NCBI GenBank assembly: GCA_963976765.1
Contig: CAXBME010000020.1
Coordinates: 1-64,000, forward strand
Direction: 5' to 3'
DNA length: 64,000 nucleotides
Origin: an uncultured Planctomycetaceae bacterium
GTDB lineage: Bacteria > Planctomycetota > Planctomycetia > Planctomycetales > Planctomycetaceae
Of the stretch, positions 24,001-30,000 are shown piece by piece. Made by a program: the position numbers. How positions within the stretch are numbered: the first letter of the stretch is position 1; each line of letters opens with the position of its first letter.

Positions 24001-27000
24001 CGAGCGTATCGTTAGCTTCGAACTTCGCGCCAATCGAAACGGGCCGTTCGGCGACCGCAGTCGTGGCGGCGAGACCGAAGATGATTGCGGCACTGCTTAG
24101 TCGTCTCAGCATCTCTGACCTCTCGCCTGTTTCGATACGCCGGGGCTTAGTTTCATTCTGCTGACTCGCGTGCTGCAGCTTGCGTTTCGTCGAAGGATGT
24201 CAGCAGTTCTCGCAGGTTGAGTTTCACGTAGGGACGTTCGGCGGCGGGGTGTTTGTGGTCGGCGTTGGCCACGTACAGAATTCCGTCGGCGGGAACAAAG
24301 AGCACGTTGTGCAGGTTCGACTTCATGGCGACCGGGCGGCTCATCAACCACTTGCCGACATCGGCGTCGATCTGGCCGTGTTTTTGAGTGACGCGTTCCC
24401 TGAGTTTTTCCAGACGGCTTCCGGCTGACAGCACGACGGCGTCTTCGATGCCTTTTCCAAGTCGCTCGTGCGTTTGCCCAGGCTGGACGAACTCGATGGA
24501 CTCAGGCAGTGCCGAAACACCAACTGCCCGGTTTGTTTTTCCGTCGGCAAAGACGTAGTAGTACTCGCACGTTCGCGGATTGTTTTTCCAAAGGTCCATG
24601 ACTTCGTCGAGCGTCGAACATTCTTCCAGCGCGCGACGCATCAGCGTGGCCATCGGAACGCCGTCCCACTGACCCTCGCCGCGACCGCCCATTTCGCCAA
24701 GTGAGATCGCCTTCGCGTTCATGCCGCTGACGCTGCCGATGAAACCCGCGTATCCGACATTCGCAAAGGGGATTTGGCCATCCACGTTTACGATGAATGT
24801 GGTCGCCGAGTCCTGCAGTCCGATCGTGGTCATGTAGTCGAGAACTCGCCCGTGGTAGAGCTTGCCGTCGACTGTCGCCTTTCCGAAGACCGCGAAGCCC
24901 GAACAGTGGAAAAGTTCCGGGAAAACGTTGAGAGCTTCAACCAGCTCGGGATCGAGGTCGAGGGCCGCGGCCATCGCTCGCGTCTCGCGTTTATGGCGTT
25001 CGGGGATGTGCGGTGCGAGGCGTTTGTACGCGGCGTCCAGATCGCTGCGAAACCATCGTCCCGTTCGAATTGTTTGAGCCGTCCCAAAGGTATAAAGCAC
25101 GGAATCAATGCAGCGTCCGGCTTCAGCTTTCAGCAGCTCGCCATGAGCTTTGCCGACCTGCTCCGGAGTTCCTTTCAGCAAAGCCACTCGCTGACCATCG
25201 ATCCATCGCAACTCGCCGTTCGAAACTTTGCCACCTGACTGCGGCGGATTCCTGAGCAACGGCGAAGGAGCCAGGATCTCGAACGCTCGCCGGACTCCGC
25301 GGACAAGTTGCCGTTCGATTTCGACTCGGGGCAGAAGAACCGTCTTCAGTTCGGGCCATGATTCAGCAGCGAGAGCCTCCGGAACGGACGAGTTCACCGC
25401 AAGGTCGATGGCAGCATCGCCAGCCTGGATGTTGATCTTTCCAGCCGATGTGAATGCGAAGTTGATGTCACCTTTCGACCAGCGCTCGGATTCAGAGTTG
25501 AACTTCACGCTGCCCAGCGTCGTCAGCGCAACGGAAACGGCATTGGCATCGGCCTGTAGAACGAGGGGGGCGAACGCACCCACCTGGCTGCCCGAACTGA
25601 ACAGTCGGGCTGTGATCTCAAGCGGCTGCAGCGAGTTGGCAGGATCCGTCGTGCCGTGGCCGATGAAAACGACCTTGTGGAGCGGCAACGCGAACGCGGT
25701 GGTTTCGGCTCGACGACGGATTGACACCGCATATTCACGATGCGTCAGCGACAGGTCAAAGGCGTCGTCGCTGAATCGAACGAGCTGGATGTTGACAGTC
25801 TGTTCTTTTCCGTCGATCGGAAGCGCGACGTGACCCGTCAACGAGAACTGCGACTCGCCGCCGCTCAAAGCCTGCAGGAACGGTCGCAGGCCTTCAGCCA
25901 GTGGATCGTTCGCCGGGACTCCCGCGCCGAGCAAAGGCGAGACCGGCAACAACACCAGCACGATGCAGAACAGGCGGTGAACACTCATCGTTCAATACTC
26001 CACGCGATCTATCAAAGAAAAAGATTGACCACGGAATGCACGGAAGACACGGAACGACCAACTTTGTTTTTGCGTCTTCCGGGTATTCAGTCGTTTTTAG
26101 TTTTTTGGTTGCTGGATAGCTGCCAGAGGCGCAGCACGACCGGTAAAGCATGACGACGCGAAACGAAAATCGCCACACGAACGAAGAGAGCCCGGTCTGG
26201 AGATCAGATCGGGCTCTGCGTGATTGTTCGTTCGGTCGCTGACGTTCAGACGCTCGGAACGGCATGAGAGCCAGGCAGAATCAACGTGTGCCACTGGCTT
26301 CGCCAGTGCTGAATGATCTTCCGAACGTACTTCGAGAAGGTACTGGCAATGCCAGTGGCACACCTCTTGATCGGAATTGGTCAGGCCGTCACCAGGCAAT
26401 GACCGGACGGCGTGACCCGGGATCAGGCGGCGCGTCCAGCAGGGCGGGACGTGGCTTCCAGTTCGGCGCTGATCAACAGGCCGCGGGCAATGCTGTGGTC
26501 AGTTCGGGTAATCAGTCGAGGGCGAGATGTCTCGACGGGCAGGCTCACTTCCTGCAGAACGCTGGCCAGAATCGAGCCGAAACCGGGCGTCTGGATCAGT
26601 CCGCCGCCGCAGACAATCGGCAGGGGACTCGGTAGTTCCTTCGCTCGGCGACTGCGGATCAGTTCGCCGGAAAGTGCGTCACAGAGTTCAAAAATCGTTT
26701 CCTGTATCAGCGTTTCGACATGTTTTGTGAAGGCGTCGCCAGAGATCGAGGCGGTGCTGGTCAGCTTTTCTCGCCGACGAGTGATCGACAGCAGCGATTC
26801 GCGAACGAATGATTGGTCGGCTACCGGAGTGTCGGCTGGGGAATCGTCGGAGACGACCGACGGAGCATTAAGTTTTTTAGCCAGCTGACGGTCGATCCAT
26901 TCTCCGCCGTGATCGCTGGCGGCGTGGCAGATCGGGTTGCCTCGATGCGCGAGGATAGCTTCGCAGCCGGACGCTCCAAAGACGATGCCGATCCCCGTGA

Positions 27001-30000
27001 ACGCGCTGTCGACCAGCTCCGCCAGGATCAACGCCTGACTGGCCGGAACGAGCTTGGGTTCGTAGCCTTGAAGCTTGACGAGACGGACGTAGAACTCCAG
27101 GTCTGCTCGCGCTTCGCTGGATGAATCAAGAGCTGCTCCTCCCGGCAGAGTCAGTGCGCAGATTTCGTGGCGGCTACCGGCGATCGGCAGAATAACTTCG
27201 ACGAGTGAGCTGATGAGCTGTCGGACGAGCGGGTTCCCCTTCGGGATTCGACCACCGACCATTAGCGGCAGGCACGGCGACTTGAAGAGTTCAGCGTTGT
27301 CGAACGCGCCGTCGCCCAGCAGCAGGATGCCGTCTTCGCATGTTGTAAATTGAAGGCCGCATTGTTCGAGCAGACGCTGGTGCGCGGGCGAGTCCGGCAG
27401 CACGGCGTAAACGCAGCGGCTGGTTCGAGACTTCAGGACGTCGTCTTCACGTCGCAAGGATCGGATAGACGATGAGCCAAGTTCAAGCGCGGCGGTCATG
27501 AGTTGCCTCGTTCATCTGACGGACGCTCGTCGTGGTTGTGAGTGACAGCTTTCGAACGGGCTGCATTCTGTCCCTGATCGACCGATGACAGGATTCGGTC
27601 CAGCAGATTGGCCCCCTGCACAACGACAGGCGATGGTTGTACGGATACTGGTTTGCGAGTCGTCGTTGCTGAACGACCGGCTGCCGTGTGAGCGATTGTC
27701 TCCGCTGCCTGATGGCCAGTGTCCAGCCGGAACTGCCGAGCCGGATTAACTGCGGCCGGTTTCGCTGGAGCTTCGGGAGCCGGTGGTGCTTCCGTTTTCG
27801 AAGCAGCGTCCGAGCCTTGTCCGGTGTCACCAAAAACGGCGGTCGCCGCAAAATCAAAGATACCGGGTTCTGGCCGCGATCGTTCAGGGATCGTACCAGC
27901 AGTGTGGGGTGCCGGTACTGCCGCTGCCGCCTGTTGTCGGGTCGGGCCGCCCTTGTGGATTCTGACAATTCGCTTCTGCCCGGCATCTGAAATCTCCGGA
28001 GATGGAGCGTCAGGCATGGCGGGGTTCTCTTTCAGCACCCCTGACTTGCCGCCGGGCGTTGAAAAGTGTGGACGAGGTACGGGCCGGTGAGCGGCGTCGA
28101 TTCGTTGAATCGGAGCCGGTTTGCCAAACAGCTGTGTTTTGTGTGGGTAGTTGACGGCTTCCTCTTCAATCGGGATGTCGTTTTCGATCATCCGATCCAG
28201 CCAGTAACGACCGGAAGTGTCAATCTGTGTGACACGAGGCGCCGGGTTTTCGTGAGCGATCGAGTAGATCAGGAAGCACGCGGCGACGGCTCCCAGAAAA
28301 CCGACCGTCAGGATTGAAATCACCGGCCAGTTCAGGTGACGCGGAGGCGGAGGCAGCAGCCTGCTCCCGTCGGATGAAGCGACGGTGGGAATACTCTCAG
28401 GTTGTGGTGTTGTCACCTCTGTCCGAACAGGAGAAGCGGTCGACGGCTGAATTGGAACCAATGGGCTGGTCGGCGAAACCGGAGTCGGGCCGCCAGCAGA
28501 AGATGCCGGAGGTGATGGTGGCGGAGTATCGCGGCCTTGATCAGAGCTACGATCAGTGCTGCTTTGATTCGAACTGATGCCCGCAGCGGTGGCAGCGAGA
28601 GTTGCTCCCTGCATGGCCAGAGAGAAACTGCCTCCACTTCGAGAATTGTCGAGTGTGGTCGGCGGCGATGCTTCGGCCGGCGGTTCAGACTGGGATGCAG
28701 AGTCGTCGACTGCGTTCCGCGAGGAACCGAACGGCTGCAGTGGTTCGGGAGTCGCAGGCTCTGAGGCGTAAGGACGCGGCGCTTCTGGTGAAAAGTCTGC
28801 CAGATTGGGGCGAGGCTGATTGGCCGGCTGCGCGAGTGCCGACTCTGTGACCGATGACGAAGCGTAACCCGGTAATGGCTGCTCGTTCTGGCGGGATGCG
28901 TCGCTGACAACAGCAGAGCCGACTGCAGCAGAAGCGGCAGGTCTGTCCTGAAAGACGTTTGCCGATCGGGCTGCGGACGCGGAGGCAGGACTTTCGGTCG
29001 TTGGACGCTGGGATACAAACGCTCGGCCTGACAGCTCTGGAGCCGGTTCGTCAAGGGGGACGGACGACGGGTCGGTCAATAACTGCTTGACGAAAATCTG
29101 CTCGTCCGGAGTCAGGTCGACTTCCTCTGTCTGGCCTGCCTGGTTGGCACGATCCGGGTTGGCATCAATTGTGGGGACGCGGGCTCGACCGGGAGCGGCT
29201 CCGTACCGATTGCCTGGCCCGGTTGCTGGTTGTTGAACAATCGGCACTGTCGGACGAATCGGCTGTGGGGCCGCCACGGGTTGTCGACCGGCTTTGACGG
29301 GGACAGGAAGATCGTCAGGCAGCCGCGACGAATCGACCATGGCTGGATCGAAGGCCAGAATCGTTCCCGTCGACAATCGCGAATCCGGTAGAACTTGAAC
29401 TGGCTGCCGCTGAGTGATGGCTTTGACGGAGTTTACGACTCGTTCGTCGAGCCCCAGATGACGAGTGACCCAACGAATCGTGGATTTCCCGGCAGGGATC
29501 GTGATCACAACCGGATAATCGCGAATTCCCGTGATGGCCAGGGTGACATCCGCGTCTGATTCGTCGGAAGTATTCTGGTTCCCGCGAAGGATGATCCGCC
29601 CCTGGTTGATCTTGCCGTCGACCACCAGAATGTCGCCGGACACCAGCCGCTCGGTCGACTCTCCGTCGCCATAAAAGACGGATTGAGCCATTCGCCCGTT
29701 GCGGATGATTCGGATGGAGCCGGCGGCTGTCCGATTCAGATTGCCTGCAAACTCGACGAACGACACCAGTGACGGTGATGAGGTTGGTAACTCATAGCAG
29801 TTGGGGTGGCCGATGTGCCCGATAATCGTGAAATAGTGAGGTCCGTTCGCCGACCGTGTGATGCCGGGGTGCTGCTGCAAACCATTGAACACCTGACCGA
29901 ATACGACGTCCCCTTGCAGACAGATGACTGCAAGAATAACCAGATTCAACCAGGTTGGTCGCACAGCTGACATTCGTGACCGTCCTCTTGGCGAGGCAAT

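Follow-up and report, generated by a model that had tools for sequence, protein, structure and literature searches.

In the 64,000-nucleotide stretch of DNA from an uncultured Planctomycetaceae bacterium analysed here (the window), two overlapping genes form a dedicated module, in which a volactin-family actin-fold protein (the actin) is paired with a single-pass membrane protein (the anchor) that carries a conserved cytoplasmic motif. We favour, at roughly even probability, a reading that makes the anchor an envelope-spanning scaffold at the core of the module, with the actin as a non-hydrolysing accessory adaptor seated on a 55-residue motif of the anchor tail. Planctomycetaceae are budding bacteria that divide without FtsZ. 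The gene pair bears on how planctomycetes bud and maintain envelope cohesion without FtsZ, and offers a defined entry point into the construction of their envelope.

Both genes were proposed in a first-pass annotation of this DNA, and both ORFs were recovered when re-read from the window sequence (Table 1). The anchor gene opens with an ATG, and an AGAGGA element lies 9 nt before it. The coupled anchor-actin pair was present in 54 fetched loci. The genes overlap in 47 of them (by 4 nt in 44, by 1 nt in 3) and are separated by gaps of 39-117 nt in 7. No neighbour family was common to more than 11 of these 54 loci, no pilus or division genes adjoin the pair, and a promoter and terminator scan at the locus returned chance-level signals only. 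The family genomes searched contained no anchor-actin fusion, with open frames of at most 438 aa. One natural fusion (P0054, 856 aa; 1/150 among the matches listed) was set aside as evidence because its junction lacks the terminal helix and possibly reflects a frameshift. The pair is not described among the papers listed from the openly searchable literature on volactin, planctomycete actin homologs, FtsA-like proteins, BeeR and Plim_3752/Plim_3753; an essential trans-envelope anchor of this kind is undescribed in the literature searched.

Table 1. Features of the anchor-actin locus, in window coordinates.
Feature	Position	Strand	Basis
Volactin-family actin-fold protein, 358 aa, degenerate nucleotide site; putative Plim_3752 orthologue	26423..27499	-	PF25216, fold model, residue survey, TraDIS index 0.111
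Ala153, aligned with the catalytic Glu of canonical volactins	27041..27043	-	alignment of family and canonical copies
ATGA stop/start overlap (translational coupling)	27496..27499	-	actin and anchor ORFs share 4 nt
Anchor, 825 aa: signal peptide, two periplasmic beta-grasp domains, Pro/Ser/Thr/Ala-rich spacer, one membrane helix, cytoplasmic tail; putative Plim_3753 orthologue	27496..29973	-	TraDIS index 0.0141
C-terminal amphipathic helix, aa 789-799	27577..27609	-	present in 43/54 relatives
Conserved cytoplasmic motif, ~55 residues (helix, acidic pair, Gly, Arg-x-Asp, Pro-His)	28054..28215	-	tail alignment
Membrane helix, ~aa 551-575	28249..28323	-	hydropathy 2.6
Low-complexity periplasmic spacer, aa 229-548, 17% Pro, 35% Ser/Thr/Ala	28330..29289	-	composition
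Beta-grasp domain 2, ubiquitin-like/TGS-like, ~aa 138-216, modelled packed on domain 1	29326..29562	-	fold model
Beta-grasp domain 1, SLBB type, ~aa 45-124	29602..29841	-	profile and fold matches
Predicted cleavable signal peptide, ~aa 1-26	29896..29973	-	hydrophobic stretch aa 11-29, read from sequence

The module is found family-wide. The actin gene was detected in 59 of the 61 sampled Planctomycetaceae genomes and the anchor, by head or tail profile search, in 60 of 61; the actin was found in 0/190 other genomes of the class, none of which holds either gene at full length. The module is limited to one family and is therefore not a class-wide, general budding machine. The lineage specificity claimed initially holds within the class for this sample; at phylum level it does not, as 98 of 285 non-family Planctomycetota genomes have members over the PF25216 cut-off. 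Two genomes count against a core-module reading: the 98%-complete G531 lacks both genes, and in G379 the anchor shows no detectable head. G403 (n=1), in support of that reading, retains an anchor of 731 aa but no actin, and the anchor's tail motif is degenerate in its first half.

The window actin matches PF25216 over the whole model (positions 1-321) with 141.9 bits against a cut-off of 35 (E 4.1e-41), and is 21% identical to a Natrinema volactin (pairwise E 5e-20). Its AlphaFold model, built from 104 alignment rows, displays a four-subdomain actin fold (pLDDT 92, pTM 0.91). The best structural match is BeeR (8r2n; TM 0.67, Z 24.5, rmsd 3.6, 310 residues aligned), at only 15-17% identity, and no BeeR, MamK or MreB family cut-off (NCBIfam, Pfam) was exceeded. 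BeeR, whose ATP residues are intact, forms polymers with ATP (PMC11929497), whereas the window clade has lost most of these residues. Among 56 family copies, which share ancestry and are not independent (44 of them are less than 80% identical), the catalytic connect-1 Glu occurs in none, against 44/44 canonical bacterial and 3/3 haloarchaeal copies. The adenosine-motif Thr is likewise found in 0/56 (42/44 in canonical copies), and the phosphate-2 Ser and second Gly in 3/56 each. The glycine motifs are partly retained (phosphate-1 Gly 52/56, adenosine Gly 56/56). The window actin keeps 4 of 13 nucleotide-site positions, picked after the alignment had been inspected, and lacks the intact-site set (Glu, S-x-G-x-G, G-G-T). 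Conserved residues specific to the clade, arginines for the most part, are grouped in domain I (R13, R25, R93, Q94, R339). Judged from these residues, the family actin looks like a pseudo-ATPase, with hydrolysis gone and nucleotide binding probably lost for the most part; in this bacterial actin lineage, catalysis would have disappeared throughout the family.

Hydrolysis-dead actins can still build stable filaments (ParM/MamK mutants). A first alternative, possible though on the unlikely side, is that the actin still forms, with no turnover of nucleotide, a filament or lattice that lines the membrane and is held by the anchor. This polymer would set local curvature or pole shape in the manner of Mad28, and would be non-essential. 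The intact fold and the retention of the actin in nearly all family genomes speak for such a static cytoskeleton. However, subdomain IIB, a usual longitudinal contact in actin filaments, is the least conserved part of the protein and is largely deleted in five copies of 302-316 aa. The copies of this one family also average only 29% identity, where canonical copies from many families average 52%, a low value for a protein surface that self-polymerises. Further points in favour are Mad28, a studied filament-forming actin of deep-branching magnetotactic bacteria, which localises by curvature (PMC10653835, PMC12713370; available parts), and volactin filaments, which attach to the membrane by their tips (PMC10869688; available part).

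Published TraDIS data for Planctopirus limnophila bear on both genes. We infer orthology of the anchor to Plim_3753 and of the actin to Plim_3752 from synteny with P. hydrillae and from gene lengths, the latter recovered from insertion-index fractions; the 2268 nt of Plim_3753 match exactly none of the P. hydrillae anchor starts (2316, 2289 and 2262 nt). Plim_3753 received 32 insertions where about 260 were expected (index 0.0141), and Plim_3752, with 124 insertions in 1122 nt (index 0.111), was freely disrupted. The published fitted model gives log2 likelihood ratios of +7.1 for the anchor (essential class) and -28 for the actin. At the local rate, 32 insertions correspond to about 280 nt; in P. 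hydrillae, about 85 codons separate the end of the tail motif from the stop. The depleted gene of the pair is the anchor and not the actin, which had been missed in the first-pass annotation. These data suggest that the anchor is essential in P. limnophila, where the actin, represented by its putative orthologue Plim_3752, is dispensable. A polar effect was ruled out as the cause of the depletion, because the three essential ABC genes past the pair (Plim_3751-3749) lie on the opposite strand. Against an essential anchor, Plim_3753 is absent from the 703 rows of the essential-gene heatmap in the accessible part of PMC10632474, a heatmap restricted to genes with an eggNOG group. The same portion of that paper describes 108 essential phylum-specific proteins without function in P. 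limnophila, and its mreB and mur genes as non-essential. For one candidate of this kind, the present analysis supplies a fold and a topology, names a likely partner and points to a locus tag in a genetically tractable strain. The earlier proposal that the actin acts in budding as such is not supported, because Plim_3752 is freely disrupted and the gene is missing from all 190 other class genomes.

A depleted upstream gene followed by a tolerant downstream one is also the pattern of an antidote and its target. The anchor might be depleted only because a harmful actin-fold partner is set free once the anchor is lost, or because truncated exported fragments are toxic, in which case the module would have no core envelope role. 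Both genes are indeed missing together in G531. We nevertheless consider this explanation improbable: G403 has an anchor without the actin, and interruption of the anchor should lower actin output through translational coupling.

The outer domain of the anchor, previously described as impossible to fold, does fold: its two domains modelled together reach pLDDT 89.8 and pTM 0.86. Domain 1 matched SLBB_2 in 16/18 and SLBB in 15/18 alignment members (E<=0.1; best 2e-9), the window copy's own domain matching only SLBB, at E 0.004 and below cut-off. Its profile matched Wza (E 9e-7) and ComEA (E 8e-5), and superposition on WzaB (9n9a; Z 12.3, rmsd 2.0, 77 residues aligned) places it in the SLBB superfamily. 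For the head, the ESM Atlas returned only SLBB clusters, under 0.9. Domain 2 gave best Z scores of 7-7.6 to TGS/ThiS/DIX folds, a common arrangement. The spacer is not alignable among relatives.

Domain 1 being closest to the SLBB domains of Wza/OPX, the head might act as a Wza-like periplasmic ring in a polysaccharide, holdfast or stalk export apparatus, and abstracts in the literature report stalks for several family members. This seems doubtful, as SLBB domains are also used in ComEA and NuoF. The Poly_export domain and export-cluster context of Wza/OPX exporters were not found, with no Poly_export match on the anchor and no conserved neighbours. The head also gave no helix-hairpin-helix match and, unlike Wza/OPX and ComEA, is N-terminal and followed by a Pro-rich spacer, an inner-membrane helix and a cytoplasmic tail.

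A hydropathy window of at least 1.6 marks the membrane helix in 48 of 54 relatives and is weaker in 6. The tail motif was detected in 57/61 family genomes at E<=2e-6, and in the 190 others none fell below E 1e-3. A 35-residue motif right behind the helix had been described; it actually spans about 55 residues and lies 17-228 residues past the helix in relatives. Homology of this motif to the tails of canonical volactin partners was unsupported (hhalign E 0.28-0.38), and the last helix of the anchor gave E 0.075 against a haloarchaeal tail profile of only 3 rows. Matches of canonical type A tails to type B and to haloarchaeal tails were also weak (E 0.004, probability 9%).

In the scaffold-and-adaptor reading that we favour, the pair would be a Planctomycetaceae-wide envelope module with the membrane protein as its core. 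A long flexible spacer would carry the exported tandem beta-grasp head in the periplasm, where the head, judging from SLBB domains of the Wza/ComEA type, may self-associate or grip an envelope polymer or an outer-membrane partner. A single helix would cross the inner membrane, and the 55-residue cytoplasmic motif would recruit the actin. Descended from the volactin/Mad28 family, the latter would act in the cytoplasm as a static adaptor or clustering factor, comparable to PilM on PilN, and would not be a dynamic filament. The envelope role of the anchor would be needed for growth, the actin being accessory under laboratory conditions. More tentatively, and with a clearly smaller chance of being right, the anchor may be an essential trans-envelope tether organising polar growth or bud constriction in Planctomycetaceae, which lack FtsZ and in which peptidoglycan genes are dispensable; the anchor would be descended from a volactin-partner operon with the roles inverted: the partner gained a Wza-type head and became the core, and the actin decayed to a pseudo-ATPase cap. 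In the model first put forward, budding or polar growth is driven by a dynamic volactin filament that runs on ATP and is tethered by the anchor. This is very unlikely despite the PF25216 membership (about 300 bits for the G270 and G156 copies), the coupling to a membrane protein and the partly retained glycine motifs. Across the clade, the catalytic Glu and most residues of the nucleotide site have been lost, the Glu even from the two highest-scoring copies, and the actin is dispensable in P. limnophila and was not found in the 190 other class genomes.

Among known systems, VolA (HVO_2015; PMC10869688) of Haloferax volcanii likewise matches PF25216 over the whole model, at 20% identity to the window actin, whose clade has lost the catalytic and most nucleotide-site residues. 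Haloarchaea provide a precedent for the pairing: their volactin gene immediately follows that of a membrane protein whose long tail bears short conserved motifs (3/3 loci fetched), described as CdpA-like in the available part of PMC12126565 (HVO_2016 in H. volcanii). The planctomycete partner differs from HVO_2016 in being single-pass with a periplasmic tandem beta-grasp head; it has one membrane helix only, and no match to the four-helix PF23600 (DUF7139) was found on it at E<=0.1. Full deletion of volA was reportedly not achieved; in the planctomycete pair, by contrast, it is the anchor that is depleted, and the actin is dispensable.

The claim of a first bacterial volactin system fails, because 98/285 other Planctomycetota carry PF25216 members and Mad28 shares the canonical signature. 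The 44 canonical copies read from these genomes have intact motifs. Canonical volactins of other Planctomycetota share the partner-then-actin order of the window pair, but have a soluble coiled-coil partner with a different tail motif; they are undescribed with such partners in the literature searched. The signature published for Mad28 (phosphate-2 S-x-G-x-G, connect-1 x-E-x-x; PMC10653835, available part), compared by motif description, equals that of canonical volactins and is lacking in the family clade. Mad28 also has a dedicated partner, Mad25, but this is a soluble coiled-coil protein and not a membrane anchor, and Mad28 has retained the Glu that the window clade lacks; it assembles into filaments and serves to position magnetosomes (PMC10653835, PMC12713370, PMC12748827; parts available). 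Saltatorellin was rejected as a member of the same family; it is published as branching near MamK and was set apart by description. An IMG/VR scan with a canonical volactin query gave no match. The family clade and canonical volactins form separate branches (SH-aLRT 100) in a quick tree with 28/56 clade rows and long-branch warnings, and therefore no donor or root is claimed.

In PilM-PilN and FtsA-FtsN, an actin-fold adaptor sits on the tail of a single-pass membrane protein, which is the mode of action proposed here for the actin. PilM (2ych, Z 19.0) and FtsA (1e4f, Z 20.0) share the fold of the window actin, but belong to a different family and align over about 250 residues, against 310 for BeeR.

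The anchor and actin-fold genes of the window, which overlap in a shared ATGA, constitute a real module. Both occur once in the window's genome. The anchor ATG is preceded 9 nt upstream by an AGAGGA element, and no such element was found before a longer GTG start at 30234. Three loci were set aside (two truncated at contig ends and one lacking the actin gene); in the 54 loci carrying both genes, the overlap is 4 nt in 44 and 1 nt in three, and the other seven (L031, L036, L045, L128, L133, L134 and L137) show gaps of 39 to 117 nt. All seven gapped loci lack the final amphipathic helix of the anchor. 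The architecture upstream of the actin gene was identical in all 15 Planctomycetaceae loci fetched first, and no neighbouring gene family was common to more than 11 fetched loci. The literature searched contained no description of this pair. Elsewhere in the window, a 2487-aa ORF (35947-43410, plus strand) shows, by eye, beta-propeller-like, Gly-rich calcium-binding-like and FG-GAP-like repeats; it is probably a surface protein.

Coordinates, strand and products of the gene pair
Feature	Position	Strand	Description
Anchor gene	27496-29973	-	825 aa, upstream member of the pair
Actin-fold gene	26423-27499	-	358 aa, shares ATGA with the end of the anchor gene

The outer domain (head) of the anchor, which the first-pass annotation had been unable to fold, was modelled from 55 aligned rows with a pLDDT of 89.8 and a pTM of 0.86. 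It comprises a pair of beta-grasp domains, of which the first is of SLBB type and nearest to those of Wza/OPX and ComEA proteins (WzaB: Z 12.3, rmsd 2.0); SLBB_2 was matched by 16 of 18 members. The second is ubiquitin/TGS-like (Z 7-7.6). After the head come a Pro-rich spacer, a single membrane helix and a cytoplasmic tail motif about 55 residues long; 43 of 54 anchors also carry the final amphipathic helix. The full head was detected in 54 of 61 Planctomycetaceae genomes (E<1e-20), the motif in 57 and either of them in 60, most of these genomes having themselves supplied rows to the profiles. Outside the family, the head profile gave only partial, Wza-like matches to the first domain. Exceptional genomes are G531, from which both genes are absent, G403, which has an anchor with a partly decayed motif but lacks the actin gene, and G379, which has a short anchor without a detectable head.

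The actin-fold protein matches Pfam Volactin (PF25216) over the whole model with 141.9 bits. Its predicted structure (104-row alignment; pLDDT 92, pTM 0.91) is closest to BeeR (TM 0.67, Z 24.5); the next matches are crenactin, actin, Hsp70 and MreB. We aligned 56 family copies (that of the window and 55 from fetched loci) with 44 canonical copies, i.e. bacterial volactins from outside Planctomycetaceae with intact nucleotide-site motifs, and three haloarchaeal volactins. At 13 nucleotide-site positions, picked after inspection of this alignment, 42 of the 44 canonical copies keep all 13 residues and two keep 12, whereas family copies retain 0 to 8 and that of the window retains four. All 44 canonical and all three haloarchaeal copies have the connect-1 glutamate, the catalytic residue in ATPases of the actin family, but none of the 56 family copies does. 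Mean identity is 29% within this single family and 52% among the canonical copies, which come from many families. In a quick tree of 28 of the 56 rows, which raised long-branch warnings, a long branch (SH-aLRT 100) separates the family clade from the rest. With subdomain borders assigned from the secondary structure of the predicted model, subdomain IIB is the least conserved part, largely missing in five copies of 302-316 aa, and clade-specific arginines are retained in domain I. We read the family protein as a pseudo-ATPase; sequence and fold place it in PF25216, yet its nucleotide site is not intact, and it should therefore be called volactin-derived. In the actin match of G427 (L111), one profile included a TGA near the 3' end and the Pfam model none; the former match probably extends beyond the stop.

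Across the class, 59 of 61 sampled Planctomycetaceae genomes carry PF25216 and none of the 190 others does, which bears out, for the sampled genomes, the earlier claim that within the class the actin family is confined to Planctomycetaceae. The name of the family follows the first-pass annotation, named database hits and the Planctopirus hydrillae locus. At phylum level, 114 of 301 genomes were above cut-off, including 98 of 285 outside the family, mostly at 230-310 bits; the Pfam family is thus widespread in bacteria. One of these outside proteins is 42% identical to haloarchaeal volactins. The family-specific part is the degenerate actin clade with its anchor partner, not PF25216 as such. 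PMC10653835, PMC12713370 and PMC12748827 describe Mad28 as forming filaments and positioning magnetosomes. Its published motif signature is that of canonical volactins, a likeness at the level of motifs (PMC10653835), so that the proposal of a first bacterial volactin probably fails. Jumbo phage records LR745208.1 (L159:2325-3972) and LR756511.1 (L160:2992-4011) also encode volactins with intact motifs; in the former, a partner gene overlaps the volactin gene from upstream, and the end of that partner is similar to the tails of cellular partners. Haloarchaeal volactin likewise lies behind a membrane protein, a CdpA-like DUF7139 protein (3/3 loci; an arrangement noted in PMC12126565), whereas canonical planctomycete volactins are preceded by soluble coiled-coil partners of two types. 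The anchor's tail motif showed no clear profile similarity to the tails of canonical or haloarchaeal partners.

Insertion data were available for Planctopirus limnophila. A primer in the TraDIS paper (PMC10632474) led to the P. hydrillae genome, where the order, labelled from the sequences, is ubiA-type gene, 192-nt gene, photolyase-like gene, 420-480-nt ORF, dehydrogenase-like gene, anchor, actin. The source file of that paper gives one insertion index per locus tag, and gene lengths were deduced from its fractions. Lengths in P. limnophila and P. hydrillae are 897 and 897 nt (Plim_3757, UbiA family), 192 and 192 (Plim_3756), 1599 and 1608 (Plim_3755), 867 and 867 (Plim_3754), 2268 and 2262-2316 (Plim_3753, anchor) and 1122 and 1122 (Plim_3752, actin). 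Plim_3758, 3765 and 3766 agree on the other side; no tag of the Plim series corresponds to the 420-480-nt ORF, and Plim_3759-3764 lack a P. hydrillae counterpart. Plim_3751-3749 (1356, 1644 and 933 nt) correspond to three opposite-strand genes that lie beyond the actin gene at L131 and L132, two related loci. We infer that Plim_3753 and Plim_3752 are the anchor and actin orthologues. Plim_3753 received 32 insertions (index 0.0141) against about 260 expected at its neighbours' rate, and its log2 ratio under the paper's fitted model is +7.1 (threshold 3.6). Plim_3752 received 124 (index 0.111; ratio -28), comparable to mreB. Plim_3753 is not among the 703 rows of the paper's heatmap, which covers essential genes with an eggNOG group, and the authors caution that condensed DNA can lower insertion. 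The anchor appears essential in this tractable model. The three converging genes (L131:4923-8984, and L132) are ABC-transporter-related; insertion indices of Plim_3751-3749 are all very low, and across the family this gene neighbourhood is not maintained.

What the data show directly are the architecture and folds of the two proteins, the coupling of their genes, the loss of residues and, in published data, the insertion counts; how the module works is a model to which we give about an even chance. The exported head would bind itself or an envelope component, the Pro-rich spacer would cross the periplasm, and the tail motif would bring in the actin-fold protein, which would serve as a static adaptor and be accessory under laboratory conditions. 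A static polymer would be compatible with the lost nucleotide-site residues, and a static filament setting curvature is an unlikely but serious alternative. That the anchor is required solely to hold back a harmful partner, another reading of the insertion counts, seems rather improbable. Membership of the module, with its Wza-like head domain, in polysaccharide or stalk export is quite improbable, and the dynamic filament for budding of the first-pass annotation, set beside a pseudo-ATPase, is hardly to be expected.

Other actin homologues were seen. A MamK-like actin of the window's genome (G000:C2:129333-130355, minus strand, outside the window) scored 361 bits against a cut-off of 400; it was found in 0/15 other family genomes, and 74/301 phylum genomes passed the cut-off. 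In other Planctomycetota families, a degenerate volactin-family domain is fused N-terminally to a PilT/PilU ATPase (L046-L049). Tandem intact volactins follow a single coiled-coil partner in L058-L061, where the second copy is longer at its N-terminus by about 130-300 aa, and intact volactins of family f55 (L062, L063) carry very long N-terminal arms in open frames of 820-940 aa. Finally, a degenerate volactin-like domain lies in-frame with an integrase-like N-terminal part at L050:4681-6978.
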